DNA of 64,000 nt from an uncultured virus (IMG/VR IMGVR_UViG_3300035682_000007) (Duplodnaviria; Heunggongvirae; Uroviricota; Caudoviricetes). Positions 1-48,824 of the stretch are shown in pieces (position 1 is the stretch's first letter; each line of letters begins with the position of its first letter). Where the stretch lies: the IMG/VR virus record IMGVR_UViG_3300035682_000007; one strand, written 5' to 3'. A program made the position numbers and the translations under genes. The notes under the pieces are model-generated. The model saw nothing but the letters and a program-made list of their open reading frames with translations. It did not search any database and was not told where the DNA came from.

Positions 1-1409
1 TTACAGGATTGACATATTCCACCAGCTATTAAACCACTAATAACTTTTTTAACCCTATTAATTTCACTTTCTTTGATAGCTTTATCAGTTGTTTTTTGAT
101 TCAAATCTTTGGTTAAAACATAATGTTTATCCTCATCAAAATCTACTTCACCGATATTAGCTATTTTAGCTTCTATACCCTCTTTTTTTTCTTTTAACGC
201 AATACCTTTAGTTTTTAAATCAACAATATCACCTTCTAATTTAGATGGGTTTAATTCAAAGATAGTAACATCAACATTTTCTTTACTGTTAAGTAATCTA
301 TCATTTTCAACACTAAGGTCAGCCATTTCTTTAATAGCATCACCAAGTATTTTTTCTAATGTACCTTTTAATTCAGTATTTAATACAATTTTTTCTTTAT
401 GGTCAGCAATTTCTTCACCCAAAGTTATTACATCATAATTATTTGATTTCTTTTTCTTAGCAAACTCATTATACATACCTCTAACGGCAGCTTCTTTAAG
501 TTCTAGTATCTCTAGACCTATAAGTCTAGTTAGTACCTTACCAGACTCCGTAGTAGTTAACCCTATTAAATCATCTAAGTTTTTCTCAGTAGCTAATACA
601 AGCATTTCGAAATCTTTCTCTGTACCTATTGTTTCTCTAAGTTTTTTAGTTGTTTGTTTAGCATCTTCTTCATTCTGCAATTCTTCAGTATCATCTGGAA
701 GTAGCTTATAATAATTTAACTTGTTAGTAACAGTCCACCCACCACCTTTTTTAGCTGAACGTTTCATTTTACGTTCAATGATAGTTTCCTCACCTTCAAT
801 ATCAATCATTCCACGTACAGTCAATTCGTTTCTATCACTGTATAAATTGAAGACTTCTTCATTTCTATCTGTTTTGGTTGTTGTACCATGTAACAAAAAT
901 TTAATAGCATCAATCGTAAGGGTCGTTTTTCCACCCTGGTTTGCTGGGATTGAGTTTACGATTGTTAACCCTCTCAATTTACTGAATGGGGCATAATTAT
1001 TTTCACCAAATGATAAAAAATTATCTACCATAACCCATTTGATTGACCATGAACGATGTTGTGATTCATTTAAATCAATATTTAATTCACTATTAACCTT
1101 ATCATCCAATGCTAATATACGACTAAAATCTACTACTTTGCCATCTCTATCAATAACTTCCTTCATAAGGGCTCTTTGATAATTGACATCCATAATATTT
1201 TCTATACCTGCACCAGATACTTCAATCATATCACCATTGGCATTCTTTTTTACCGCTTTAAATGTAACACTAATGTTTGTTTTTGGTATACCATACTTAT
1301 TCGCAAAGTGATTGATAACTCTTGTCTGATTAGCTCTACTGTAGTTTTCTGACCTATCCAACCATTCTACTTTTACTTTAGAATACGGTGGTATTGTATT
1401 ATTCGCCAT
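1..1409 (-). CDS. sbcC: SbcC/Rad50/gp46-like recombination ATPase, runs off the window start
   Basis: Manually translated from ATG 1409 (absent from the ORF track). Contains WVMVDNFLSFGENN, Walker A-like ANQGGKTT, coiled coil and zinc-hook GICQSC at the window edge. Has a ~115 aa N-terminal extension. Confidence 0.9.
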   Translation of the reverse strand, partial: MANNTIPPYSKVKVEWLDRSENYSRANQTRVINHFANKYGIPKTNISVTFKAVKKNANGDMIEVSGAGIENIMDVNYQRALMKEVIDRDGKVVDFSRILALDDKVNSELNIDLNESQHRSWSIKWVMVDNFLSFGENNYAPFSKLRGLTIVNSIPANQGGKTTLTIDAIKFLLHGTTTKTDRNEEVFNLYSDRNELTVRGMIDIEGEETIIERKMKRSAKKGGGWTVTNKLNYYKLLPDDTEELQNEEDAKQTTKKLRETIGTEKDFEMLVLATEKNLDDLIGLTTTESGKVLTRLIGLEILELKEAAVRGMYNEFAKKKKSNNYDVITLGEEIADHKEKIVLNTELKGTLEKILGDAIKEMADLSVENDRLLNSKENVDVTIFELNPSKLEGDIVDLKTKGIALKEKKEGIEAKIANIGEVDFDEDKHYVLTKDLNQKTTDKAIKESEINRVKKVISGLIAGGICQSC

Positions 1410-1749
1410 ATAAATCTATTTTGTTGTTTTTTTGGTCTCTTGCTGAGATTTCTTTATTAATTGTTTTTACTTCAGCTTCAATTTTATTTTTAACTTTTTT
1501 AACCGTAGCAGTGTGTTTTTTGATATTTTCTGGAACTTCCAAACTGATTGGGTTGATAACTTCAACTGACACTTCTGGGGTCACCTTATTAGTTTTACCA
1601 GGAATTATTGGTGTCGCACCAAATTTTTCAATAGTAAAACCTTGTCTAATAAGTCTCACTATGAACTCGTCTATGTTGGTTATATTATTGGCTCTGCAAT
1701 AATCCCAAATATCATCTTTAAGTTGTTTCGGTATCTCCATTTTCGTCAA
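1399..1749 (-). CDS. hypothetical protein (116 aa)
   Basis: ORF overlaps both neighbours in the operon; no recognised motif. Confidence 0.7.
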   Translation of the reverse strand: MTKMEIPKQLKDDIWDYCRANNITNIDEFIVRLIRQGFTIEKFGATPIIPGKTNKVTPEVSVEVINPISLEVPENIKKHTATVKKVKNKIEAEVKTINKEISARDQKNNKIDLYGE

Positions 1750-1981
1750 AGTTTAATTGTTCCAAGTCACCTAACAAAATGTTTTTCACATCTTCGTCAG
1801 TTTGATGAAGGAACTGTACGTCATTAGTCTTCTGGTCAACATAAATAGTCATGATTGAATTATTTTTCATGATAAATGTGTTGCCATCTTTATCCAAGCA
1901 AAACTCACCGTTTACTGCTTCGTAATTGTCCATGTCTTCAGGTATTGAGTTCACGAATGTTTTTAATTCTCCTAGTGTCAT
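1718..1981 (-). CDS. hypothetical protein (87 aa)
   Basis: Coupled ORF; MTLGELKTFVNSIPED start resembles small phage proteins. Confidence 0.7.
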   Translation of the reverse strand: MTLGELKTFVNSIPEDMDNYEAVNGEFCLDKDGNTFIMKNNSIMTIYVDQKTNDVQFLHQTDEDVKNILLGDLEQLNFDENGDTETT

Positions 1982-2205
1982 TATAAATTTGTTATTTTTT
2001 CTTTCCCTTCTTCTAAATCTTCAAGGGATGTTATTTTAAATTTGTAAAACGGTGAATAATTTTCAACATCGTGTTCTGTAAATGTTTTGGTTTCAATATC
2101 CCATAGTAAAAAACCATGTTTGGTAACGTTTTCACCAAAGTTTTGTTGAATCAAACTTGATGGCATTACGACTTTAATTATTTTTTTAATTTTTATTTTT
2201 TTCAT
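1981..2205 (-). CDS. sbcD: SbcD/Mre11-like nuclease, C-terminal fragment
   Basis: VVMPSSLIQQNFGE...HGFLLWD is the motif that normally follows GDIH in SbcD (YxGSxxQxxFGE...G). Preceded by a basic tag MKKIKIKKII. Confidence 0.85.
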   Translation of the reverse strand: MKKIKIKKIIKVVMPSSLIQQNFGENVTKHGFLLWDIETKTFTEHDVENYSPFYKFKITSLEDLEEGKEKITNL

Positions 2206-3107
2206 TTATTTTTTAATTTATTAAACCAATTTATTATTTTTTCATATTTTTTAGTATTATACATAAAATTTATTTTATATTCAATACCTATATTTTTAAA
2301 AAAAATTAAAGACGCTTCACATTTTAATTTAAAAATATTTTCATCATCAATATACCCTTTTACTTCTTCAATTATTTGATGATTTTCAAATTTAATTAAA
2401 AAATCTGGTAAATATCTTTTATTTATATTATTATGAATAAAATTTATAACATATCCATGTTTTTTAGTCCAAAAAATAACTGATTTATCATTATCTAATT
2501 CTATCATTCGTTCTTTTTCCCATGAAGAATGATAATATTCTTCATCTTTAGTTTTTTTACTAATATACCACCCTCGTTGACATGAATTATACGCACCATA
2601 ACTTGGGTTACTTAACATTCTACTTATATTAGCTGAAGATATTTTATCTCTAAATAATTTATTTTGAAAATCAAAACTACCATCATCTATTCTATGTCTA
2701 TCCAGAAAATCTAAATGTTTTTTTAACCTTTCTGGATTTTGCCATGATTTTTTAATTTTTTCACTAATTTCAAGTCTCTTATCGTTATCGTGATAGCCCC
2801 ATTTATTTTCTTTACCATAATTCCCATTATTCTCTCCTAATTGATAAAATTTTTGCCACTCAATTTGACATTCTTTAGAACAAAAACGTTTTTCTCTATC
2901 AATAGATTTTGCTGAATTTATTACATGAAAAACATTGGTACACCCACTAAATTCACATATTTTCTCTTTTTTTTCAAATTTTTGACTATTAGAACTACAT
3001 TCTCTAGAGCAAAATATTTGCTCTTTTTTATACGTTTTAAAGTTATTATTACACTCTTTACATTTTTTTTCCATTTTTGCTATAGTTATTTTTGGTGATA
3101 CCCACAT
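2202..3107 (-). CDS. free-standing putative homing endonuclease (Zn fingers plus TnsA-like PD-(D/E)XK domain)
   Basis: Two Cys-rich ...FCSxEC fingers; C-terminal HSSWE...YLPDFLI...EEVKG; lies between the sbcD halves. Confidence 0.85.
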   Translation of the reverse strand: MWVSPKITIAKMEKKCKECNNNFKTYKKEQIFCSRECSSNSQKFEKKEKICEFSGCTNVFHVINSAKSIDREKRFCSKECQIEWQKFYQLGENNGNYGKENKWGYHDNDKRLEISEKIKKSWQNPERLKKHLDFLDRHRIDDGSFDFQNKLFRDKISSANISRMLSNPSYGAYNSCQRGWYISKKTKDEEYYHSSWEKERMIELDNDKSVIFWTKKHGYVINFIHNNINKRYLPDFLIKFENHQIIEEVKGYIDDENIFKLKCEASLIFFKNIGIEYKINFMYNTKKYEKIINWFNKLKNK

Positions 3108-3136
3108 TATTTTATTATAAATATCTCCAAAAATAA
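3086..3136 (-). promoter_or_regulatory. start-codon-enclosing hairpin overlapping the putative late promoter ATATTTAT
   Basis: Arms 3086-3100 and 3122-3136 (14/15 complementary) flank ATG 3107-3105; motif at 3117-3124. Confidence 0.7.
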
Positions 3137-3145
3137 GAAAAGAAG

Positions 3146-3826
3146 TTATTCATCTATCTCCCAACCCATTTTAAGATATTTATCCAAATCATCTTCATTT
3201 ATTTCTTTAACCTCTTTAAAGTTTAAAGTACCTCTTTTGTGAATATCCCCACACATTACAATATCGCAACCATTAAATATTTCTAAATCATATCCGTGGT
3301 CTATCACATAACCAATATCAGTACTTGAACCAATTAATGGACCATGAAATAATCCAATATATGACTTGTCATCACCAAATTGTGCTCTGGCTGCTTCAAT
3401 ATCAGGTCTTGTATTTTCTTCAAATATTGAATAGACGCACCATACAATATTATCATCCAAATAACACTTAGATTCTTTGAAATAATTAATTTCTTTATCT
3501 GGTAAGAATTGAACCATCGGTGTTATTGAATCCATACGGTCTTTATTATTCTCTAAAAGGTCATGATTACCTGCAATAACAACTACAGAACCAAATTCTT
3601 CTAATTTACGTAAAAACCATGTTCCTAACAATAATTGTTCGTTAGAGATAACAATTTTTTGATGAACAAGGTCACCAGCAACCACAATTCTAATTTCTTC
3701 TCTTTTATAATCAGCTAACAAATCAGTTAGGTCTGAAAAAAAGTTGATAAATACAGTTTTGTATTCATCATGAAGCCTCATTGTTCTAATGTGTATATCA
3801 GCTACGTGTACTACTTTTTTTATCAT
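3146..3826 (-). CDS. sbcD: SbcD/Mre11/gp47-like metallophosphoesterase nuclease, N-terminal fragment
   Basis: ADIH, AGD, GNHD, FHG and GDIH motifs; ends in acidic tail EINEDDLDKYLKMGWEIDE. Confidence 0.9.
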   Translation of the reverse strand: MIKKVVHVADIHIRTMRLHDEYKTVFINFFSDLTDLLADYKREEIRIVVAGDLVHQKIVISNEQLLLGTWFLRKLEEFGSVVVIAGNHDLLENNKDRMDSITPMVQFLPDKEINYFKESKCYLDDNIVWCVYSIFEENTRPDIEAARAQFGDDKSYIGLFHGPLIGSSTDIGYVIDHGYDLEIFNGCDIVMCGDIHKRGTLNFKEVKEINEDDLDKYLKMGWEIDE

Positions 3827-5205
3827 TATATTACAAATAATTTATTTTTTGCTCTTGTTACAGCAGTATACAAAAGCTTATTTCGTTCTTTTTTATCTTG
3901 TACACGTTTAATATCACAATTGATTACGATGGCATTGTCAAATGTACTACCTTGTGATTTATGTACTGTCAAAGCGTAATTATACTTTACATCAGCATAT
4001 TTACCCAATAGGTTAAAATACTTAACCCACGCATTTCTTCTTAACATTGGAGAAGCTTTACTAGCTTTCTCTTTTAAGATTTTTAATTCTTTTTGAAATG
4101 CTGATTCTGATTTTTCAGCTAATAACTTTATCGTTTGTGTTTTACCATTACATAAAACCTTAACCGCATAATAAGAAAACTTATAAGCAGTTGTTTCAGT
4201 TTTCATTTCATATGAAAGTACTTCAAACTCATCATTGTTATTTAATAGTATTCTTTTTCTACTATCAGTAATTGGTTTATTACAAACCATTTTTTCACCA
4301 ATATTTAATACACCACATTTTTCACCATAAATCATTCCTCTGATTTTATCATTGTAATAATCTACTGCTCTATTTGTCCAAGCTAACACCTTAACAAAAT
4401 TAGGATTTTTATTAAAATTTTCAGATTTAAAGTATTTTTCCAATAAAGGCATTTCAGTGTTTATCTTTAAAAAGATAACACCATTGTTTTCCTCATCAAC
4501 TATAGTTTCTTCTTTAATATCTTCATTGGTTCTAATCTTTTGTGCTATCTGAATAATTGGATTACCACCAGCTTGTCTGATAATTTTGGTAAGGTTAAAA
4601 CTATTTTCTAATTTTTCAGTAAATAACCTAGATTCACCTCCATTTACTGGTGGTATTTGACCTCTATCACCGATGAATAACAATAAAATATTATTGTATT
4701 CAGCACTACTTAATAATTGCTCGTATAATTCATTATCTAACATTGAAACTTCGTCAACCAATACAATATTAAATTCACCTATTTCACCACCACCGAATTC
4801 TGCTTTATATTCTTCTTTACCTTCAGAAGTTATAACTCTTTTCAATCCAAGTAATGAGTGAAGCGTATTAAATTCAACTCTGGAATGTGTTTCACAAATT
4901 GATGATAAGTTTTTCAATACTCTTACTGCTTTGTTTGTTGGTGCCGTAATAGCTATTTTAACACCTTTGTTTTGATAAAGAATCTCTTCAATTATCTTTG
5001 TAACTAAAAAGGTTTTGCCAGTACCAGAATAACCAGTTAAAAGACTTTGAGAGAAAGTATGCAGTTTGATAGTTGTTATCTTATCAAATATTTCTTTCTG
5101 TTCTTCATTCAACATTGAAACATCTGGTTTAACAATACTATTGGTAACCTTTTCGATTCGTTCTTCTTTAATTAATTTTGGTAACACTAAAAATTGTTCA
5201 TTCAT
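3826..5205 (-). CDS. Dda/RecD-like SF1B DNA helicase
   Basis: GYSGTGKT, APTNKA, DEVSM, GDRGQIPPV, YALTVHKSQGSTF, YTAVTRA. Confidence 0.92.
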   Translation of the reverse strand: MNEQFLVLPKLIKEERIEKVTNSIVKPDVSMLNEEQKEIFDKITTIKLHTFSQSLLTGYSGTGKTFLVTKIIEEILYQNKGVKIAITAPTNKAVRVLKNLSSICETHSRVEFNTLHSLLGLKRVITSEGKEEYKAEFGGGEIGEFNIVLVDEVSMLDNELYEQLLSSAEYNNILLLFIGDRGQIPPVNGGESRLFTEKLENSFNLTKIIRQAGGNPIIQIAQKIRTNEDIKEETIVDEENNGVIFLKINTEMPLLEKYFKSENFNKNPNFVKVLAWTNRAVDYYNDKIRGMIYGEKCGVLNIGEKMVCNKPITDSRKRILLNNNDEFEVLSYEMKTETTAYKFSYYAVKVLCNGKTQTIKLLAEKSESAFQKELKILKEKASKASPMLRRNAWVKYFNLLGKYADVKYNYALTVHKSQGSTFDNAIVINCDIKRVQDKKERNKLLYTAVTRAKNKLFVI

Positions 5206-7105: not shown

Positions 7106-7345
7106 ATGGGAAGACCAAAACTAGAAGAAAAAGAAAAAAAAATAAAATTAGGTATAACTATTTCTAACCATTCATTTACCATGTTAGAAATACTAACAAA
7201 TAATAAATCAGAATTTATTGAAAACTTAATTAATAATTATTTAAAAAACGTAACAATAACAAACAACATTGAAATTAAATATGATAAAAATAATAATTAT
7301 GTTGGTAGTAAAACAACTAAAATAATTGATATCAATGATAATTAA
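7106..7345 (+). CDS. small ribbon-helix-helix-like DNA-binding protein
   Basis: MGRPK..EKKIKLGITIS...NKSEFIENLI pattern typical of CopG/RHH proteins. Confidence 0.65.
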   Translation: MGRPKLEEKEKKIKLGITISNHSFTMLEILTNNKSEFIENLINNYLKNVTITNNIEIKYDKNNNYVGSKTTKIIDINDN

Positions 7346-7976
7346 ATCTGGAATTTATAAAATAATAAATAAAAATAATGGTCGTTATTATATTGGTAGT
7401 TCTATAAATATTAAAAATAGATGGAATGAACATAAACGCACATTAAAACAAAATAAACATGATAATAATTTTCTTCAAAAATCATGGAATAAACATGGTG
7501 AAGAATCATTTTTATTTGAAGTGATTGAATATGTTTTAGATTTAAATAAATTATTAGAACGTGAACAATTTTATTTAGATTTAATAACATACGATAAAAA
7601 AATGAGTTATAATTTATGTAAAACAGCTGGTAATATGCTAGGTTTCAAACATAGCGATGAAACAAAAAATAAAATGTCTAAAAGTCGTATTGGTAATAAA
7701 AATAGTTTGGGTAATAAACATACTGATGAAACAAAAAATAAAATGTCTAATTCACATATTGGTCTTAAACATGAAGAAAAAACAAAAATTTTAATGATTA
7801 ATAAAAGTAAAAAAGATATTTTAAAATCAATAAAATACAAAACTAAAATCTCTAATGAAATAAGAACAGAACTATTAAATAAATATAGTTCTGGTTCTTA
7901 TTCAACTAGGAAATTAAGTGAATTATACGGTATTAGTAAATCAACAATATGGAATATAGTTAGAAAAGATAATTAA
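7335..7976 (+). CDS. GIY-YIG homing endonuclease with NUMOD3 repeats and C-terminal HTH
   Basis: SGIYKI...YYIGSS...RWNEH, ERE; KHSDETKNKMS-type repeat twice; start placed at ATG 7335. Confidence 0.92.
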   Translation: MIIKSGIYKIINKNNGRYYIGSSINIKNRWNEHKRTLKQNKHDNNFLQKSWNKHGEESFLFEVIEYVLDLNKLLEREQFYLDLITYDKKMSYNLCKTAGNMLGFKHSDETKNKMSKSRIGNKNSLGNKHTDETKNKMSNSHIGLKHEEKTKILMINKSKKDILKSIKYKTKISNEIRTELLNKYSSGSYSTRKLSELYGISKSTIWNIVRKDN

Positions 7977-8705: not shown

Positions 8706-9320
8706 CTAATTTACATAAACCCATTTAAATCCATGTGCTGTTTTACGTTTATCATTTAACACTAAATTAATGTTGCTTTGATTAAACCCTAAACTTTCAA
8801 CAACATCATAAGTTCCTTTCCAATATTTAATAACTTCATTATTAATATTTAATTGTAAAATTGGTTTTTTCGGTTTAACTGGTTTACCTTTTTTATTTTT
8901 TAACATTAGATTTTTAGTTTCTTCAGTATCTTTTTTACCATAAAATGGGTTTTTATCACCAATTCTAAGTTTAGCGTTATCAGATATTTTTTTCTTATGT
9001 TCTTCACTTAGTTTAACACCTAATGTATTACCAGCTATCTTACAAATATTATAGTCTGGCTTTAAATTATCTAAATAATATTGTTCACGCTCTAAAATTA
9101 AACTAGTATCATTAATTAATTCAATTATTTCAAATTTAAAATTATCCGAACCGTATTTATTCCATGATAATTGTAAATGTTTATTATGATGAACATTTCT
9201 ATTTAAATCACTTTTATGTTCATTCCAACGTTTTCTAAAACCACCATTACTGGATGCACTACCAATATAAATTTTATTATTTACTAAATTAAATATTTTA
9301 TATATTCCTTTATTATCCAT
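8706..9320 (-). CDS. GIY-YIG homing endonuclease (NUMOD3/NUMOD1)
   Basis: GIYKI...IYIGS, EREQ, YN, SEEHKKKIS, C-terminal KTAHGFKW. Confidence 0.92.
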   Translation of the reverse strand: MDNKGIYKIFNLVNNKIYIGSASSNGGFRKRWNEHKSDLNRNVHHNKHLQLSWNKYGSDNFKFEIIELINDTSLILEREQYYLDNLKPDYNICKIAGNTLGVKLSEEHKKKISDNAKLRIGDKNPFYGKKDTEETKNLMLKNKKGKPVKPKKPILQLNINNEVIKYWKGTYDVVESLGFNQSNINLVLNDKRKTAHGFKWVYVN

Positions 9321-28117: not shown

Positions 28118-28180
28118 ATAAATATTTTTAAATTACATATATTTATAAATATATAAAAAAATTAAATATGTGTAATTTAA
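28118..28180. promoter_or_regulatory. bidirectional ATATTTAT motifs plus a hairpin sequestering the endonuclease ATG
   Basis: Arms 28128-28144 and 28164-28180 (17 bp, one G-U) include ATG 28168; palindrome ATATTTATAAATAT at 28139-28152; extra minus-strand copy at 28118-28125. Confidence 0.7.
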
Positions 28181-29061
28181 CTAAACTAAATAAATTTATA
28201 ACAAAAGCAAAAAAAATACATGGTGATAAATATGATTATTCATTATGTGAATATATTAATTCAAACGTAAAAGTAAAGATAGTATGTAATAAACATGGAG
28301 TTTTTGAACAATTGATGGTAAAACATATAAATAGAAAACAAGGTTGTTCATTATGTAATGGTGGTGTAAAATTAACCACTAATGAATTTATAACAAGAGC
28401 AAAAAAAATACATGGTGATAAATATGATTATTCATTATGTGAATACATTAACTCAAAAATAAAAGTAAAAATAATATGTGATAAACATGGGGTTTTTGAA
28501 CAAATTGCTAGTAGTCATACTGACCAAAAAACTGGTTGTCCAATTTGCTCAAAAAAACATAATTATAATAATAGTGAATTTATTGAAAAAGCAATAATCA
28601 TTCATAATAATATATATGATTATTCTGATATAGAATATAAAAATAATTACACAAAAATAAAAATAAAATGTAATAAACATGGGGTTTTCGAACAAACACC
28701 AACAAACCATTTAAATGGTAAAGGATGTCCTATTTGTAAAGATTCAAAAGGTGAGCGTGAAATAAGACAATATTTAAACCAAAATAATATTAATTTTATA
28801 TACCAACACACATTTAGTGATTGTAGAAATATAAAATTATTACCATTTGATTTTTATTTACCTAATTATAATATATGTATAGAATTTAATGGCGAACAAC
28901 ATTATAAACCAATTAAATGGTTTGGTGGTGAGAAAACATTAGAAGGTATTAAAAAAAGAGATAAAATAAAAATGGAATATTGTCAAAATAATAATATCCC
29001 ATTAATAATAATTAACAATGATAATTATGATTTACAAAAAAAATTATCATTGTTTATTTAA
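28168..29061 (+). CDS. putative homing endonuclease, three Zn-ribbon repeats plus Vsr-like PD-(D/E)XK domain
   Basis: KYDYS...I.C.KHG.FEQ....H....GCP.C three times; SKGE, PFDFY, IEFNGEQHY, RD..K. Confidence 0.88.
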   Translation: MCNLTKLNKFITKAKKIHGDKYDYSLCEYINSNVKVKIVCNKHGVFEQLMVKHINRKQGCSLCNGGVKLTTNEFITRAKKIHGDKYDYSLCEYINSKIKVKIICDKHGVFEQIASSHTDQKTGCPICSKKHNYNNSEFIEKAIIIHNNIYDYSDIEYKNNYTKIKIKCNKHGVFEQTPTNHLNGKGCPICKDSKGEREIRQYLNQNNINFIYQHTFSDCRNIKLLPFDFYLPNYNICIEFNGEQHYKPIKWFGGEKTLEGIKKRDKIKMEYCQNNNIPLIIINNDNYDLQKKLSLFI

Positions 29062-39374: not shown

Positions 39375-40997
39375 ATGAAAAAGAAAACAACACAAGAATT
39401 TATTAAAGAAGCAAATATCATACATAATAATAAATATGATTATTCATTATCAACATATAAAACAAATAACACTAAAGTTAAAATAATATGTCCTATACAT
39501 GGTGTTTTTGAACAAACACCCGTAAAACATATATTAGCAAAACATTGTTGCCCTAAATGTTCTAATATAAAATTACATAATATTCAAAGAAAGGATAAAA
39601 ATACATTTATTTTGGAATCAAAAAATATACATAAAGATAAATATGATTATTCATTGGTTGAATATATTAATAATAGGACAAAAATAAAAATAATTTGTCC
39701 TATTCATGGTGTTTTTGAGCAAACACCAATTAATCATTTAAAAGGTAAAGGTTGTAAATATTGTGGTGGTACATCTAAATTAGACACTAATTTTTTTATT
39801 TATAATGCTAATAAAATACATAATAATTTTTACGATTATTCATTAGTTGATTATTTAGATTCTAGAACTAAAATAAAAATAATTTGTCCTATTCATGGTG
39901 TTTTTGAGCAAACACCTAATAATCATTTATCAAAAGAACAAGGTTGTTTCAATTGTTTAAATAAAATACATGATAATATTACTTTTTCAAATTATTGTTC
40001 ATTATTACATAACAATAAATATGATTATTCATTAGTTAATTACACATTAATCACTAATAAAGTTAAAATTATTTGTCCAATTCATGGAGCATATGAACAA
40101 AGAGCCGATTCACATAAAAATGGTAATGGTTGTAATAAATGTTCTAATAATGGTGTTTCTAAAGAAGAAAAAGAATTAAATAATTGGTTGAATAGTTTAG
40201 GTATTATAACTGAAACTAATGATAAAAATACATTAAATGGTTTAGAATTAGATATTTATATTCCATCACATAATTTAGCTATTGAATACAATGGTTTATA
40301 TTGGCATTCTGAAGAATTTATAGATAAAAATTATCATATTAATAAAACTGAATTATGTGAAAAACAAAATATTCAACTTATTCATATATTTGAAGATGAA
40401 TGGTTATTTAAAAAAGATATTGTTAAATCAAGATTAATGAATATACTTGGATTAACAACGAATAAAATATATGGAAGAAAAACTGAAATACGAGAAGTAA
40501 GTTCTAAAAAATCAAAAGAATTTTTAGATGCTAACCATATTCAAGGTAATGTTAACTCTAAAATAAAATTAGGTTTATACTATAAAGATGAATTAGTTAG
40601 TATTATGACTATAGGTAAAAGACCTATGATAAATAATTATGAATATGAACTTCTTAGGTTTTGTAATAAACTAAATACTAATGTAATTGGTGGGGCTGAT
40701 AAATTACTTAAAAATTTTATTAAAACATATGAACCAAAACAAATCATAAGCTATGCCGATAGAAGATGGTCACAGGGTAATTTATATGAAAAATTAGGTT
40801 TTAATTTTAAAAATAATTCTATAATTTCTTTTTCATATATTATTAATAAAAAAAGAGTAAATAGATTGAATTTACAAAAACATATATTAGTTAAGCAAGG
40901 TTTTGATTCTAATAAAACTGCTAAACAAATAATGTTGGATAGGAAAATATATAGAATATATGATTGCGGAAGTAAAAGCTATGAACTAATTTTTTAA
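39375..40997 (+). CDS. Hef-like putative homing endonuclease (four Zn-ribbon repeats, Vsr-like core, C-terminal extension)
   Basis: YDYS...IICPIHG.(F/Y)EQ four times; ELDIYIP...IEYNGLYWHS; NHIQG...ISYADRRWS.G.LY..LGF. Confidence 0.88.
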   Translation: MKKKTTQEFIKEANIIHNNKYDYSLSTYKTNNTKVKIICPIHGVFEQTPVKHILAKHCCPKCSNIKLHNIQRKDKNTFILESKNIHKDKYDYSLVEYINNRTKIKIICPIHGVFEQTPINHLKGKGCKYCGGTSKLDTNFFIYNANKIHNNFYDYSLVDYLDSRTKIKIICPIHGVFEQTPNNHLSKEQGCFNCLNKIHDNITFSNYCSLLHNNKYDYSLVNYTLITNKVKIICPIHGAYEQRADSHKNGNGCNKCSNNGVSKEEKELNNWLNSLGIITETNDKNTLNGLELDIYIPSHNLAIEYNGLYWHSEEFIDKNYHINKTELCEKQNIQLIHIFEDEWLFKKDIVKSRLMNILGLTTNKIYGRKTEIREVSSKKSKEFLDANHIQGNVNSKIKLGLYYKDELVSIMTIGKRPMINNYEYELLRFCNKLNTNVIGGADKLLKNFIKTYEPKQIISYADRRWSQGNLYEKLGFNFKNNSIISFSYIINKKRVNRLNLQKHILVKQGFDSNKTAKQIMLDRKIYRIYDCGSKSYELIF

Positions 40998-41465: not shown

Positions 41466-42080
41466 TTATGATGAACACCCGAAGCATTCAAATTGACTGT
41501 CTTGCGGTTTTTCTGGTTTATTCTTATCCATATCAATCGCCAAGTGTTTAGCTTTATTATCTACAGACTCACTTCTTAGATAATATTGGCCTGTTTTAAG
41601 ACCTAATTTCCAAGATAAGGTATGTGAAGTTGTTAACTTACCAACTGTTGGTGTAGAGAAGAAAATATTAAGACTTTGTGATTGGTCAATAAATGGTCCT
41701 CTATCAGCAGACATTTCAATAAGGGCTTTTTGTGATATCTCCCAAACTGTTTTATATCTTTCTTTAATATCTTCACTTATTGTTGGGATATTTTGAACAC
41801 TACCATCATTCTTCATTAATTCTTGAAGTGTTTCTCTATTCCAAATACCAGCTTCTTCTAATTCTCTAACCAAGTGTTTATTTACCATTGCAAACTCACC
41901 ACCTGTTACTCTACGAACATATAAGTTGGATGTAAATGGTTCAAAAGCTTCGTTTGACCCAATTACACGAGCAGAATTATGACTAACACAACCATTTTCC
42001 ATTATATAATTATGAACATTTGGTACTTCAATATCCCAAGTTGGTTTGACACCATTTTTAGTTATACTTTTTATTTTCAT
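41466..42080 (-). CDS. nrdA: split-intein C fragment (35 aa) plus ribonucleotide reductase alpha C-terminal part
   Basis: MKIKSI...WDIEV..VHNY...VSHN|SARVIGSNEAFEP; IDQSQSLN, KTGQYYLR, C-terminal CFGCSS. Confidence 0.95.
   Translation of the reverse strand: MKIKSITKNGVKPTWDIEVPNVHNYIMENGCVSHNSARVIGSNEAFEPFTSNLYVRRVTGGEFAMVNKHLVRELEEAGIWNRETLQELMKNDGSVQNIPTISEDIKERYKTVWEISQKALIEMSADRGPFIDQSQSLNIFFSTPTVGKLTTSHTLSWKLGLKTGQYYLRSESVDNKAKHLAIDMDKNKPEKPQDSQFECFGCSS
41976..42080 (-). mobile_element. IntC of a naturally split intein
   Basis: Blocks F and G, terminal His-Asn, +1 Ser. Confidence 0.93.
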
Positions 42081-43137
42081 TTAATTTTTGTTTTATTATT
42101 TTATTTATTTTTTCTTTATTTATAACTTCACTATCTGAAGACCATAACTCTAAGTAATCAAAACCATTTTTTAATGCTAGTTGTTTTTTATTTTTATCTT
42201 TAGTGATTGATTCTTCTAAATTTAACCTAAAGTATTTTCCCCACGCATCTTCTTTTAATTTACTTACACCATATTTTTGGATATTTGGGTGGAATTTTTC
42301 ACCATGATATTCTATAATTATATTTAATGATAGAATAGTTAAATCATATGAAAAAGTTAAATTATTTTCTAAATCATGTAGTCTATATTCGTATGAGCCA
42401 CTTACACCTAAAAAAATATCATTTCGTTCAACACCGTTTTTACGTAAATGTTTATATAATGGAATAAAATATTTTAAAGATTCTTTAGATGCTGTAAAAA
42501 ATGAAACATCTCTTTTCTTGAGTTCTTCTATTTGCAATATTTTTGCTAATTTTAAATCACCATTAGTTTTCTTTAAAAAGAAATTAATACTCATACAATC
42601 TTTTTTTAAAGAAAACTTTTGATACAAGTCAATCGCTTTTTTTCTATCACCATTTGTTTTTTTTAAGAAATAATTCATTGACGAACCATCTTTATTTTTA
42701 TTTATTTCATTTAATTTAGTTTTAGCAATATTAATATCACCATATTTTTTAATTAATTTTTCTAAACTAACTACAACACTTTTTTTACGCTCAATCAACA
42801 TTTCATTAGCAATATTAATATCACCATTAGACTTTTTTAACGCCCAATCTTTACTGTTTGAATCTTTCGTTTTTAAATATTCAAACCATTTATTTGTACC
42901 ATCAACTTCACCATATTTAAAGACAAATGTTTCTAAAGTATGTTTACTTTTATCACAAAATTCTTTATATTTTATTAAACCATCAACTTCACCATGATTA
43001 AAAATAAAACTTTCTAAAGTTCTACCACATTTTAATTTGTGGATTTTTACTTTATCAATCGCTTCATTTTCAGAAAAACCTTTACCTAACCAATATTCAA
43101 TTTTAAAAGGTGTTGTTTTACTAGATATTTTTTCCAT
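42058..43137 (-). CDS. free-standing putative homing endonuclease (helical repeats plus Vsr-like domain) between the intein halves
   Basis: SKES...YDL...IIEYHGEKFH...D..K...A...GF..LELWSSD. Confidence 0.85.
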   Translation of the reverse strand: MEKISSKTTPFKIEYWLGKGFSENEAIDKVKIHKLKCGRTLESFIFNHGEVDGLIKYKEFCDKSKHTLETFVFKYGEVDGTNKWFEYLKTKDSNSKDWALKKSNGDINIANEMLIERKKSVVVSLEKLIKKYGDINIAKTKLNEINKNKDGSSMNYFLKKTNGDRKKAIDLYQKFSLKKDCMSINFFLKKTNGDLKLAKILQIEELKKRDVSFFTASKESLKYFIPLYKHLRKNGVERNDIFLGVSGSYEYRLHDLENNLTFSYDLTILSLNIIIEYHGEKFHPNIQKYGVSKLKEDAWGKYFRLNLEESITKDKNKKQLALKNGFDYLELWSSDSEVINKEKINKIIKQKLNENKKYN

Positions 43138-43168
43138 AATTTTCTTTATTATAAATATCTAGTAAAAC
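43115..43168 (-). promoter_or_regulatory. perfect 16-bp hairpin enclosing the endonuclease ATG, overlapping ATATTTAT
   Basis: GTTTTACTAGATATTT 43115-43130 / AAATATCTAGTAAAAC 43153-43168; motif at 43151-43158. Confidence 0.8.
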
Positions 43169-43181
43169 TTTAAACGACCAA

Positions 43182-45326
43182 CTAATCTTCAAAAATATTT
43201 AAAATATCGTCCGTGGTTAATAAATCTTCAACTTTAACCCAAATATTAAAATCATCACGTTTAACTTTAAATTTATGATTTCCTGTTGCTTCAAATATTG
43301 AACCATCTTCCATTTCTATTTTATACACTTCAGAGTGACCATTATACCTAATTTGCGTTACTGTTTCCCACCCTGTTTCTGTTTTAACATCAATGGGTTC
43401 TAATTCAATCCAACTAGGTATATTTGATTTTTCATACCATTCATAATCAACATTGTTATCAACTAAAATATTTTTAAACGATTTTATTCCATTATCTGTT
43501 ATAATATCAGTATTAATAACTTGGCAACTTGCTGTTGGTGGACATGTCGTTACCAAAGAATTTCTAACACCATATTTTTTAATATCTTCACGTAATTGTT
43601 TCCAATCATACATTCCAGATAAAATTTCTTCTTTAATATCCCACATTTCCCATTGAAAAATACCTTGTGATATAGGTGAACCTTCAAAACCACTATAGGT
43701 TAATCCACTTTCTTTAGCTAACCTACATGATTCAGTTAAAGCATTAAAATAAATCGTTTCAAATATATTTTTATTTATTTGTCTTGCTTCTGGTGATGTA
43801 AAAGGCAATTTAAGCAACGCAAATACATCAGCTAAACCTTGGATACCAATTCCTAAAGCTCTTTGTTCTAAACCACCTTTACGGCCTTCCTCAGTTGAAT
43901 ATTCATTAATTTCTAAAGCAATATTAAGTGATTTGGTAATTGAACGAGCAACACGACCTAATTCATTATAATTATAAACACCATCATTTACAAATTTTTG
44001 TACTGGAATACTAGTAAGAGTACAAATAGCTGTTGTATTAGCATTAGTTGTCTCCATAATCTCGCTGCACAAGTTACTAGAATGGATAACACCCATATTC
44101 TTTTGGTTAGATTTGATGTTTGCTGAATCTTTAAAACACATATAAGGCATTCCACTTTCAATTTGTGCTTCAAGTATCTTAAGCCATAAATCATGTGCTT
44201 TAATTTTGGTACCAATACCTAATTCTACAGCCTTATTATATTCTTCTTCATACTCAGCACCATAAATTTCATAAAATGGTTTTAAACCAGCCATTTTGAT
44301 ATCATGTGGACAAAATAAATACCAATCAGTGTTTCCTTCTACTGCTCTCATAAAATTATCTGGAATCCAAAGTGCAGAAAATAAATCTCTTGCTCTAAGT
44401 GTATCATCACCAGTTTTCTTTCTCATATCCAATACATCAAAGATATCTTTATGCCATGGTTCAATATAAATAGCACATGAACCAGGTCTTTTACCTCTTT
44501 GATTCCAAAATCTAAGAGCTTCATTTATTACTTTAAGGTATTTGAATATACCACCAGCTTTACCATCAGAATTACCAACGTTGGTTTCTCTAGAACGAAT
44601 ATTTGAAACAGCTAAACCAATACCTTCAGCTTTAGAAGATGAAATAGAAATTCTACCTAACATGTTTAATAACCCTTCAGTTGAATCATCTGGTACTATT
44701 GATAAATTACATGATGCAATTTGACCAATCTTGGTTCCAATATTTATTTTTATTGGTGTTGCTGGAGATTCTTTTTGGTTACTTAAATCATTATATTTCT
44801 CTCTGAAATCATCAGCATTGTTTGTTACCATAAGAGCAACTCTAATGTATAATTGTTGTGGTCTTTCAACCAACTGACCATCTTTAGTTTTTAAGAGATA
44901 AATATCTTTAAGTGAACACCAACCAAAATAATCAAAATGATAATCTCTTTTATAATCAATTACAGAATCAATAAGTTCAATATTTTCTTTTACTTTATTA
45001 TAATAGAAATCATTTAACAAACCTGCATTATATTGTTTTTTGGTTGCTTTCATGAAATTATCTTCAGTTTCTTTATGTAACTTACTAATAGAAATATTAG
45101 AAGCTAATATTGAATAATCTGGATGATTCATTGATAATGATTCAGCAACAATTGAAATTAAATCATCAACTTCATTTGTTGTCATGTTATCAGCAATTCC
45201 TTGTGTAACTTTTAAGAACAATTCATCAGGGTTAACTTTTAACCCATCTGATTGTTTTTTTATTCTTAATAAGATTTTATTTGGATTAAAATCTATTTTC
45301 TGTCCGTTTCTTTTTATTACTTGCAT
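43182..45326 (-). CDS. nrdA: class Ia ribonucleotide reductase alpha N-terminal part (600 aa) plus split-intein N fragment (114 aa)
   Basis: ATP cone VIKRNG, ASC, NQRGKRPG, SNLCSEI, PTAS|CQVINTDI...ATGNHKF. Confidence 0.95.
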   Translation of the reverse strand: MQVIKRNGQKIDFNPNKILLRIKKQSDGLKVNPDELFLKVTQGIADNMTTNEVDDLISIVAESLSMNHPDYSILASNISISKLHKETEDNFMKATKKQYNAGLLNDFYYNKVKENIELIDSVIDYKRDYHFDYFGWCSLKDIYLLKTKDGQLVERPQQLYIRVALMVTNNADDFREKYNDLSNQKESPATPIKINIGTKIGQIASCNLSIVPDDSTEGLLNMLGRISISSSKAEGIGLAVSNIRSRETNVGNSDGKAGGIFKYLKVINEALRFWNQRGKRPGSCAIYIEPWHKDIFDVLDMRKKTGDDTLRARDLFSALWIPDNFMRAVEGNTDWYLFCPHDIKMAGLKPFYEIYGAEYEEEYNKAVELGIGTKIKAHDLWLKILEAQIESGMPYMCFKDSANIKSNQKNMGVIHSSNLCSEIMETTNANTTAICTLTSIPVQKFVNDGVYNYNELGRVARSITKSLNIALEINEYSTEEGRKGGLEQRALGIGIQGLADVFALLKLPFTSPEARQINKNIFETIYFNALTESCRLAKESGLTYSGFEGSPISQGIFQWEMWDIKEEILSGMYDWKQLREDIKKYGVRNSLVTTCPPTASCQVINTDIITDNGIKSFKNILVDNNVDYEWYEKSNIPSWIELEPIDVKTETGWETVTQIRYNGHSEVYKIEMEDGSIFEATGNHKFKVKRDDFNIWVKVEDLLTTDDILNIFED
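43185..43526 (-). mobile_element. IntN of a naturally split intein
   Basis: Cys1, block B TGNH, acidic end WVKVEDLLTTDDIL. Confidence 0.93.
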
Positions 45327-46304: not shown

Positions 46305-48824
46305 TTAATTATTTGGTTTTTCAAATAGGTCACTATTTAATAGACTATTTTTAGTTTGTATAGCACCTATTACTGTATTTACTCTAGTTTGCTCTTTAAT
46401 CTCTACATTTTTTTTATATTCACTACGACTAGAACCATGTTTATTCTCACCCATTTCTATTTGAATTCTAGCGTTATCAAATATAATATCTTCAAATACC
46501 TTCCCAGATTGACCAAAACGAGATTTAAGAATAGCCATAGTTGCAGTACTTTTTTCTTTTTGGTCCAGTGTTTTAGCAATAGATACTACAAAGTGTCCAA
46601 TTTGTGCTTTTTTAATGGAACCACCCATTTGGTCAGCTTCAACTACATCAGCTTTAATAGAGCTTCTATTACCTTGAACAGCTGTCCAACCAGCAATATC
46701 TAATTCGGATAACATAGTTTCAAATTGTCTCATTACACTACCCTCACCAGCATTCACATCATCAAATCTTCTTGAAGGTTCAACACAATCAATATAATCT
46801 AATACTACTATATCAGGTCTGAAACCAGTAGCAATTAATTTTCTAATATATTGTCTAATTATTGGTATTGTTGTCCCATCACTAGAGAATTTTTTAAGTC
46901 TTAATTCCCCACCATTACTCTTTTCCATCATATTTTTAATCATCTCTTTTATCTCTTCTTTATGAATTGATAAACTATTAAGGTCATATTCTGACCAGCA
47001 TGATAAGTGTTTTCTTTGAATTACCTTAGGGTTATCCTCAAAAAATATTTGTAAAACTTTATTACCATCAGACATAGCAGTATTAGCTATTTTAGTCATC
47101 ATTGTTGTATTATGTGTAACAATAAAATCATCGGTAATAAATAAATGTTCATCATTATCAACCATTATACACGTAGCTTCTTCATCGTGTGAATATTCTA
47201 TTGATTTTATAAATTTATTGTTATCATATTTAACTCTATTAATTACTCTATCATTTTTTCTAGTTAATTTGAATGGTATTATATTATTTTTTTCTGGAAA
47301 AGATATAGTTAATTTATAAGCTTTTTTTCCAATTTTTTTAACACCTTTATAGGTATAGGTTGGTAATTTACTAGATAATTTACAAAACCCACCCAATGAT
47401 AAAACTAACCATCTAACATTTTCAATTAATTCTTTTGATGTACTGACATATTCAATCCCACCATTTTTTCTAACATTACCATCGGTATCTAATAACCCCC
47501 TAAGTAGTTCTACCCTATTTTCTATTGAATTGAATAAATAATCTCTAGGTATAAATTTAGTATCAGATTTTTTATCATATAAACCCAAAGATTTTAATTT
47601 ATCAGTAATCCCATAAATACAAACATCAAATAAACACTCTTGAACTAAAACATCACCTTTATCAATATCTCTACATCTTTCTTTAATTGAAACGTTTACT
47701 GAATTAGTTCTACTAACTTCATCAGCTATTTCAATATCTTTAGTTGTAAATCTAGATGATTTCATATAACCATCACCTAACATAACACCTAAAACATATG
47801 GATTTATTAGTAATTCTTTTTCATTAAATTCAACTGGTTCCACTATTGGTATCTTAAAATTTAACGATTTTTTGGTTCCAAAGGTTAGTTTATTAATTAA
47901 ATCTGATGTTTTAATTACTTTAAATGAATTATCTGGTTCTAATTTAATTCTTTTTCCATCTTTCCACGATGAACGATTTCGTTGGTTGATACTATTAACT
48001 GACCACAAATGTTCTTCATCACAAAAAGTAAAAGTATCATCATTAAAACTAATCTTAAATATTGGTCTATTACCTTGTGGGTAAACACCAATAACATTAG
48101 TTTCTTTACCGTTTCTACCAAATACTTTATCATTAACTTTTACATCACCCATTAGTTTGTAACCTTCAGGTGTGTAAATTTTATTTGAATTTGGTAACGC
48201 TTTACCTACTCCGAATGGTGCTAGAATTATTGCTAATTCAGTTTTTGATAAACCACCATCCATTATTTCATCTAATCCTTCGATACCTGTACGTATTGGT
48301 TTTCTAAAATCGTCAGCCAAAACTGAATCTATATCATTAAATACACTCATACCATCATCTTTACTATCACCGTGTTCCAGTGCTTTTCTTAATTTACTTT
48401 CACATTCTTCATAATTATCAATATCACCTTTGCTTATGATTTTATTAATTTCAGCAAGAGCTTTCATAAGCTCATGTTGTTTACAAAATTTCATTGCAGT
48501 TTCTTGTACCCAAAGAGTGTCGTTTAAATCAGCTTCTTTTATTTTTCTGATTTGTGTTAAAGCATAACGTCTTTGAGTGTCATCTTTAACTTCTTCGAGT
48601 AATCTAAATTCCAAACTATTAATATCTGGGATTATATCATCTTTTGCTTTAGCGTTTTTAATACCACCAACAACAATTCTTAAGTATTCATCTTCGAAAT
48701 AATTTGGATTAACAATATCTATTATAGCATTACCGAATTTTCTATCGGTAAGTATTTGTGCTATTAATCTAAGTTGATAATCCGCACCTAAATACCCTAA
48801 ATTACTTCTGTCTATTTTTGCCAT
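46305..48824 (-). CDS. dnaB: DnaB/gp41-like replicative helicase with intein
   Basis: APFGVGK|intein|[24 protein letters not shown]. Confidence 0.92.
47109..48200 (-). mobile_element. class 3 (Ala-start) intein with LAGLIDADG endonuclease, 364 aa
   Basis: ALPNS start, [23 protein letters not shown] and LRGLLDTDG. Confidence 0.92.

Follow-up and report, generated by a model that had tools for sequence, protein, structure and literature searches.

We analysed a stretch of 64,000 nucleotides (nt) from an uncultured Caudoviricetes virus (IMG/VR record IMGVR_UViG_3300035682_000007), hereafter called the window. Its source is a lake-water phage in which sbcD, a DNA-repair nuclease gene, is interrupted by a mobile endonuclease gene. 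At the break, the two parts of sbcD carry an acidic tail (at the end of the first piece) and a basic head (at the start of the second), together referred to as the tags. The best reading of this locus, to which we assign a probability of about 70%, is that the nuclease is reassembled without splicing, aided by charged tags that are borne by the endonuclease cassette.

According to this model, a free-standing homing-endonuclease cassette would have inserted into phage sbcD at the tip of a short β-hairpin that directly follows motif V (GDIH). The cassette would consist of the 21 codons of the acidic tail and their stop codon, followed by the endonuclease gene and then by a fresh start codon that opens the 9-codon KKIKIKK head. 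SbcD would then be made as two polypeptides that co-fold with neither RNA nor protein splicing. Tail and head would extend each of the two native hairpin strands, about 5 residues long, to about 12 residues; the two strands would bear opposite charges, and a small helix plus a short strand would cap them. The tags most likely hold the broken hairpin, and hence the motif V histidine, in place, or they may speed co-folding. The endonuclease presumably cuts intact alleles at the conserved site (GDIHKRQTFNHKG region) and would spread by recombinational repair, carrying along the tags and about 40 upstream codons.

Two SbcD pieces with charged segments at the break

All features of the locus lie on the minus strand. 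The N-terminal piece (N-piece) of SbcD/Mre11 is an open reading frame (ORF) of 226 amino acids (aa) at 3826–3146, which matches Pfam Metallophos (E=1.2e-10) and positions 27–221 of phrog_100, a profile labelled 'SbcD-like'. It consists of phosphoesterase motifs I–V, with GDIH at residues 193–196, followed by the tail, and shares 89% identity with the uninterrupted 270-aa gene of a related locus, L007. The C-terminal piece (C-piece; 74 aa, 2205–1981) matches positions 223–277 of phrog_100 (E=0.0025). Since the two matches abut in this profile, the pieces are consecutive parts of one SbcD/Mre11 nuclease. Between them, the ORF list places a free-standing endonuclease ORF of 301 aa (3107–2202). 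Its stop codon overlaps the start of the C-piece as ATGA, leaving zero non-coding nt downstream, and an AT-rich spacer of 38 nt (3108–3145) separates it from the stop codon of the N-piece. The actual spacer may measure 71 nt, because the endonucleases of relatives start at the equivalent of M12; the true start of the ORF is likely this M12, at 3074. A first-pass annotation of the window had described sbcD as fractured by an endonuclease gene, with 38 non-coding nt upstream and none downstream. Both descriptions are confirmed, the spacing with respect to the first ATG.

By eye, the spacer contains a box resembling one that is conserved in relatives: in L008, L010 and L012 the AT-rich box T(A/T)TTTAT(T/A)AATAAATAATG is kept between the tail stop codon and the endonuclease start. 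This box may be a cassette-borne promoter or control element.

Alignment to uninterrupted relatives delimits the extra segments. Host sequence continues to …GTLNFKE, equivalent to QTFNHKG, and resumes at IKVVMPSSL, equivalent to TVIAYPSSL. The acidic tail comprises 21 aa (VKEINEDDLDKYLKMGWEIDE; 3149–3211, stop codon at 3146–3148) and contains eight acidic (D/E) and three basic (K) residues, giving a net charge of about –5. The basic head comprises the 9 aa MKKIKIKKI (2179–2205), with five Lys, zero acidic residues and a net charge of about +5. Extra charged segments at the break had already been noted in the first pass; both are real, with their limits shifted by the alignment to these 21 and 9 residues. 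The remainder of the C-piece with its stop codon, from IKVVMPSSLIQQNFGE… to …ITNL (1981–2178), supplies core β-strands of the phosphoesterase fold.

Neither SbcD piece gave a Pfam match to a Hint/intein domain, and an Rfam scan of 1300–4300 for introns returned 0 matches at E≤1. The residues required of an intein are absent as well: a V, in place of Cys/Ser, follows …FKE at the start of the tail, and the head leads into IKVVMPSS with no HN + C/S/T. Non-coding sequence around the endonuclease ORF amounts to only 38–71 nt on the upstream side and zero on the downstream side. The earlier statement that the split holds no intein and no intron is borne out by all three lines of evidence (Pfam, Rfam and the missing splicing residues).

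Distribution of the tags and natural series of states

Scanning viral contigs with the N-piece yielded 78 loci, which form the basis of all locus counts. The gene is continuous in 62 of them, with a spacer of 14–20 residues between GDIH and a (P/S)S(L)IQQ motif; most of these genes encode 269–272 aa, and in 53 the spacer measures exactly 15 residues (GDIHKRQTFNHKG-TVIAYPSSLIQQ). Twelve loci are split, their N-pieces ending 29–31 residues past GDIH. Two loci (L023 and L025, which represent one allele) are continuous with a spacer of 48 residues, and two are uninformative.

Tail and head are present in the 12 split and the 2 fused loci, as well as in further loci outside that set, and this recurrence argues against a chance origin. 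Both are absent from 62 of the 78 related loci. The tail is conserved in all split alleles, and we found no tag-free split allele among the 12 split loci or among the additional split loci. In all nine split or fused loci examined, the C-piece has its own ATG directly preceding the head. The extra sequence is not an ordinary loop of most intact homologues, since an in-frame version occurs in just two of the 78 loci (one allele), and the first-pass proposal withstands this comparison. Some phage homing endonucleases have a 'YLxxGW' motif at the C-terminus, which may be the origin of the tail.

A maximum-likelihood tree was calculated from 58 distinct N-cores, nine rows of which are tag-bearing. 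The tag label requires seven gains or losses on this tree, at least five of which are forced by well-supported branches. The window is the sister of the intact alleles L007/L009 (support 100/99), and tag-bearing L010 is the sister of intact L049 (support 100/98). The nt identity profile reveals a mosaic flank covering N-piece codons 156–198 (3233–3361), which we read as a co-conversion tract. Whereas the identity between the window and L007 drops from 92% over codons 2–155 to 74% over codons 156–198, the identity to cassette-bearing L008 rises from 77% to 83%. Over the same codon ranges, L010 changes from 95% to 78% against L049 and from 77% to 85% against L008. The window/L012 pair was left out of this comparison because it is out of register. 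On the downstream side, the mosaic tract is only a few codons long.

The upstream mosaic fits the pattern expected from flank co-conversion during homing. Occupancy of this one site in a conserved gene is sporadic and coincides with the mosaic flank, as is characteristic of homing. Because the tags occur at dispersed positions on the tree, next to a mosaic upstream flank, they appear to move with the homing-endonuclease cassette, and their distribution suggests that the tails arrive together with the endonuclease insertion. Three continuous, tag-free 270-aa alleles (L033, L045 and L050) display flank features of cassette-bearing alleles, namely HGP…G, HGY/HGV and VMC before GDIH and (I/V)(V/A)MP after the site. 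These may represent precise cassette loss or cleavage-resistant target variants.

In total, 18 distinct tag-bearing alleles can be arranged in a series of states. Eight carry a TnsA-like endonuclease (the window, L065, L071, L001, L106, L108, L111 and L112); among these, the endonucleases of L065 and L071 are 57% identical to that of the window, and L001 is a 484-kb uncultured phage. Five alleles (L008, L010, L012, L086 and L090) carry a second endonuclease type. One allele, L069, retains a remnant consisting of the last ~25 codons of the second type between the tags (VVRFWGDDIKKKNFKYKLFNTIKEYG). Three are split without an endonuclease (L014, L081 and L100); at the junction of L014, the stop codon is followed by 5 nt and then an ATG. 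Finally, L023 is an in-frame fusion (…GWVVDDDKNSAKINIKKV…). Its junction is 7 nt shorter than that of L014, which merges the frames, and this suggests that the allele arose by secondary re-fusion. The most economical order of events would lead from an intact gene to one that is invaded and split, after which the endonuclease decayed and was lost and the pieces were re-fused.

The window endonuclease has Cys-rich, zinc-finger-like repeats in its N-terminal part and a YLPDF…EEVKG motif in its C-terminal part. Its match to PF08722 (TnsA-like) scores 21.5 bits, under the cutoff of 26.5; the homologue of L001 scores 27.2 bits, and many of the 67 homologue clusters have precomputed PF08722 matches. 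P234, D235, E248 and K250 of the motif are invariant across 16 aligned endonuclease sequences. Judging by its motif and family matches, the C-terminal part is probably a TnsA-like PD-(D/E)xK nuclease rather than a Vsr-like (EDxHD) one. A profile search for a related PDB chain found none, its only hit being an IF-2 homologue (E=0.97). The second endonuclease type has a zinc-finger N-terminus in common with the window type (27% identity over 157 aa, E=1e-6). In L008, L010, L086 and L090, this N-terminus is joined to the C-terminal motif IEADGDYWH…ND…RFWE, with weak Pfam matches to Vsr and DUF559. For this type, the profile search detected no Vsr-like PDB chain, only a zinc-finger protein (E=0.074).

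Elsewhere, relatives of the TnsA-like endonuclease are mostly intergenic, and two are located just upstream of an intact sbcD. In L113 and L115, more distant TnsA-like endonuclease genes stand immediately 5' of intact sbcD(-sbcC), outside the gene. Their position resembles that of mobE, located between nrdA and nrdB in the majority of T-even-like phages. A further relative (L144:579-881) is found directly upstream of a start resembling a C-terminal split-intein part (IntC; …NHNFFCNGSLIHN/C), followed by a dUTPase-like ORF. The arrangement in L144 indicates that the TnsA-like endonuclease family occurs in split-intein fractured genes too.

Predicted pairing of the tags and alternative explanations

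AlphaFold2 models were generated from folding alignments A3–A6; alignments built with MAFFT from whole genes together with pieces put the tails and heads in the wrong position and were not used. In the model of intact L007 (predicted local distance difference test (pLDDT) score 85), a tight hairpin with strands 199–203 and 206–210 follows right after motif V. The model of fused L023 (pLDDT 83; insert 77–85) matches Mre11/SbcD structures (Thermotoga maritima Mre11, 4o43, E=1.3e-8) and shows a strand at 200–211, a helix at 212–220 and strands at 224–228 and 233–244. The tail-equivalent residues occupy the end of the first strand, helix 212–220 and strand 224–228. In these models, the tags are predicted to lengthen the native β-hairpin strands after motif V, with an additional helix and short strand at their tip.

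The two window pieces were also modelled as separate chains, using a separate alignment for each piece, three controls and three runs. The interface score (interaction prediction score from aligned errors, ipSAE) was 0.91, versus 0.00 for the best of the three controls; in a benchmark, this mark was attained by 116 of 157 solved complexes and by 2 of 215 mismatched pairs. Contact agreement among the three runs was at least 98%, with a partner pLDDT of at least 84. The predicted interface involves tail residues 199–212, 214, 217 and 220–226 and head residues 1–11, and thereby all head and most tail residues. In the core, C-piece residues 32–37 are predicted to pair with N-piece residues 3–8. 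Because the pieces are halves of a fold with solved structures, the high score may reflect fold likeness, and the two-chain model supports, though it does not prove, binding of the pieces. The pairing of tail and head that had been proposed in the first pass is supported by both the fused L023 model and the two-chain model.

Selection was assessed as the ratio of nonsynonymous to synonymous differences (pN/pS) from pooled pairwise counts. The head has a pN/pS of 0.02 (pN 0.016, pS 0.86; 8 codons, 6 sequences) and the tail one of 0.36 (17 codons, 9 sequences), and the flanking enzyme cores have values of 0.33 and 0.29. The striking value of the head points to very strong purifying selection, acting on few, low-complexity codons. 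Between the window and L001, 11 of 17 tail-core residues are identical, with 35% identity in the host gene and 33% in the endonuclease. We infer that the pieces are translated separately and that the tags are needed, the latter being supported indirectly by purifying selection, the predicted pairing and the retention of the tags after endonuclease loss.

Several observations weigh against the favoured reading. The head of L010 is shorter (MIKMKKV), so that the full KKIKIKK is not obligatory, and L081 and L112 have a tail variant without GW (…DLSKYPNAEIVI; …DLSKYP(N/G)AE…). The tail does not have a lower pN/pS than the gene sequence on either side, and the selection argument appears strong for the 8-codon head alone, an A-rich, low-complexity sequence. 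In the L023 model, the insert columns have no alignment depth because only L023 carries the insert in A3. The complex model contains about 196 contacts, the most confident of which are strand pairs in the native core; the pieces may therefore associate without tags, as in NrdA of phage Aeh1. In addition, the activity of the endonuclease and its presumed target, namely the cutting of intact alleles, are deduced from family and distribution alone.

Of the alternatives, the following is the most probable, although we regard it as unlikely: the tags could be neutral baggage, translated cassette DNA (stop, start, regulatory), and the pieces could associate by their large native interface alone. The dominance of core contacts in the predicted interface is in line with this idea, as are the tail pN/pS, which equals that of the flanks, the A-rich, low-complexity head DNA, which is typical of spacers in this genome, and the formation of the Aeh1 heterodimer without tails (PMC3045599). 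However, the amino-acid sequence KKIKIKK of the head is preserved despite synonymous divergence (pS 0.86, pN 0.016), and the tail core has persisted in lineages with just 33% identity between their endonucleases. Moreover, alleles that have lost the endonuclease (L014, L081, L100) or been re-fused (L023) still have intact tags, and the 12 split loci of the 78, as well as the further split loci, include no tag-free allele.

The tags might instead pre-date the endonuclease. In that case the 33-aa insert would be an older SbcD accessory loop, as in L023, which later became an endonuclease target. We consider this improbable, since the continuous insert exists in just two of 78 loci (one allele), tag-bearing alleles are nested within tag-free clades, and L069 retains an endonuclease remnant between its tags. 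The 7-nt shorter, frame-merging junction of L023 relative to endonuclease-less L014 also suggests re-fusion rather than an ancestral loop. What the older-loop explanation does account for is the presence of two nuclease types at exactly one point, and the fact that L014 and L023 are tagged yet possess an 'intact-type' upstream flank (HA..NAKTDIGYE..HGA...VML).

A third alternative derives the tags from a split intein that kept its site-proximal docking strands and lost its splicing blocks. The window itself contains a true fractured gene with a split intein, nrdA (41469–45326, minus strand). Its N part (45326–43185) ends in the N-terminal intein part (IntN; Intein_splicing, E=1.3e-5), and its C part (42080–41469) starts with IntC, of sequence MKIKSITKNG…CVSHN/S. 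Between the parts lies an ORF of 359 aa that lacks Pfam matches (43137–42061). The MKIKSITKNG start of this IntC resembles the sbcD head, and in the supplement of PMC2677866 the IntC of fractured genes begin alike (MGIKIRKL…, MGLKIIKR…, MMLKKILKIEE…). According to the same paper, charged antiparallel strands mediate split-intein docking, and a split-intein origin is likewise considered for Aeh1 by Crona et al. (PMC3045599). The tail, on the other hand, starts without Cys/Ser, HN + C/S/T is missing before the C-extein, and there is no Hint-domain match. By eye, the published IntN ends, G(Y/W)V.A.(D/E)L…D.L, are not collinear with EI.E..L..Y.K.GW.ID, and two precise deletions would be needed. 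Segments of 21 and 9 aa are, moreover, too short for a statistical test of intein kinship. We judge an intein ancestry to be very unlikely.

Finally, that the split gene is a pseudogene, or is rejoined via an intron, by trans-splicing or through ribosomal bypass (T4 gene 60 being an example of a bypass element that can be carried along with an endonuclease cassette), is hardly credible: the bare interruption is the sole point in its favour, whereas Rfam gave 0 matches, both pieces are under purifying selection (pN/pS 0.29–0.33), an ATG directly precedes the head in 9 of 9 split or fused loci examined, split alleles persist without an endonuclease, and fused L023 shows the tags read as protein.

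Genomic context and comparison with known systems

Upstream of the N-piece lies a Dda/RecD-like helicase ORF (5205–3826), and downstream of the C-piece two small ORFs (1981–1718 and 1749–1399) and an SbcC-like ORF that runs off the window (1409–3) follow in the ORF list, all on the minus strand. In the clade of the window, SbcD (270 aa), two small conserved ORFs (about 75–140 aa) and SbcC are separate genes. In a distant clade (L074–L082, L001, L111), SbcD and SbcC form a single fused protein of 1042–1141 aa. Further into the window, there are two GIY-YIG/NUMOD3 endonuclease genes (7326–7973, plus strand; 8709–9320, minus strand) and treble-clef zinc-finger ORFs at 28168–29058 and 39375–40994 (plus strand), which suggests a genome rich in homing endonucleases. 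A LAGLIDADG_3 domain within an 839-aa DnaB-like helicase ORF (46308–48824, minus strand) probably points to an intein equipped with a homing endonuclease. The sequencing runs listed as containing DNA of this locus comprise 24 DNA datasets from lakes or fresh water and no RNA dataset.

The portability of the tags was assessed by searching the viral collection with a degenerate DNA pattern for Y-x-K-(M/I)-G-W-(E/V)-x-D. Of 19 matches, 16 are located in sbcD at this site; the other three fall inside two unrelated ORFs. Neither this tail pattern in the viral collection nor the loci around endonuclease relatives revealed tags in another host gene. As the tags were found in sbcD only, nothing suggests a general portable module, and the notion of a dedicated module serving other host genes, raised in the first-pass annotation, is not supported. 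What stands of the reassembly by tag docking proposed there is its core: no splicing signal is present, the complementary tags are conserved, and their pairing is predicted. Its classification as an undescribed system does not hold, since the same arrangement appears in Dassa et al. 2009 (PMC2677866) and the tail mechanism in Crona et al. 2011 (PMC3045599). With both the arrangement and the idea published, the window locus is no new kind of system.

A more far-reaching interpretation is possible, and we put it forward tentatively. The tag pair might be a self-contained docking element acting in trans, a charged β-zipper with a helix cap, that has long been kept as the 'antidote' of a homing cassette onto which two unrelated nuclease domains were swapped. 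If so, the relatives would record a full cycle from an intact gene through fission and endonuclease decay to a stable two-piece enzyme and a re-fusion that leaves a 33-residue insertion. Homing endonucleases would then give rise to small domain insertions in enzymes in addition to gene fission, and the tags could serve as very small split-protein tags.

The closest known case is an SbcD-like gene from the Lake Gatun metagenome that contains no intein and is fractured by a Vsr-like endonuclease (Dassa et al. 2009, Nucleic Acids Research (NAR) 37:2560; PMC2677866). There, the pieces have 25 C-terminal and 9 N-terminal residues that are missing from SbcD proteins; the paper describes a single locus of this kind and suggests no role for the additional residues. 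Both loci are from freshwater and consist of an N ORF, a free-standing endonuclease ORF and a C ORF overlapping the endonuclease end, with no split intein and with extra residues at the fracture (25 + 9 there, 21 + 9 in the window). By the published description, the fracture appears to be at the same place. The window differs in its nuclease domain, which is probably TnsA-like PD-(D/E)xK rather than Vsr-like. L008, L010, L012, L086 and L090 probably carry the Vsr-like endonuclease type of the Lake Gatun locus.

Split-intein fractured genes (Dassa et al. 2009; nrdA in the window) share with sbcD the gene order, overlapping endonuclease families (L144), docking (predicted in the case of sbcD) by oppositely charged antiparallel strands and C-pieces that start with a basic M-K-I-K-type strand. 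The sbcD locus differs from these in having no splicing blocks, so that its pieces must remain separate polypeptides. As for the endonucleases, L008, L010, L086 and L090 seem to share a two-domain layout, including a presumably DNA-binding N-terminal region, with I-Bth0305I, the prototype of the EDxHD enzymes (Taylor et al. 2011; PMC3239194). The nuclease domain of the window is different, and the second endonuclease type, with its weak Vsr/DUF559 matches, is a tentative member of this family.

In open-access titles and abstract openings, the matches listed include no split sbcD after 2009 and no TnsA-like homing endonuclease in phages. Within this literature, four aspects appear to be new: the variant with a TnsA-like nuclease, the swapping of nuclease domains on an N-terminal region common to both types, tags that stay conserved between distant lineages, and alleles that have lost the endonuclease or been re-fused. 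The candidate free-standing homing endonucleases of phages also gain a TnsA-like PD-(D/E)xK family whose members begin with zinc fingers.

The mechanistic precedent is NrdA-a/NrdA-b of phage Aeh1, whose oppositely charged tails arose with the insertion of mobE and are essential for activity (Crona et al. 2011, NAR 39:1381; PMC3045599). These tails are dispensable for heterodimer formation and act in dimerising the heterodimers, and Crona et al. predict similar tails in other fragmented genes. In both systems, a free-standing endonuclease splits an essential enzyme of nucleotide or DNA metabolism near its active site, splicing is not involved, and oppositely charged C-terminal and N-terminal tails are missing from intact homologues. 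The polarity, however, is reversed, the Aeh1 N-piece tail being basic and the C-piece tail acidic, and the Aeh1 endonuclease MobE belongs to the HNH family. Whereas the Aeh1 case is a single occurrence, thought to result from a transposition-like event, with tails shown by experiment to be essential, the sbcD tags are widespread and conserved and are predicted to form a hairpin extension. Few cases of splicing-free fission of essential genes by homing endonucleases are known, and only Aeh1 NrdA has been bench-tested. With 18 tag-bearing alleles, the window locus and its relatives offer a far richer natural data set for this process, which makes it possible to test the requirement for the tails, their structural mode of action and the healing of split genes.

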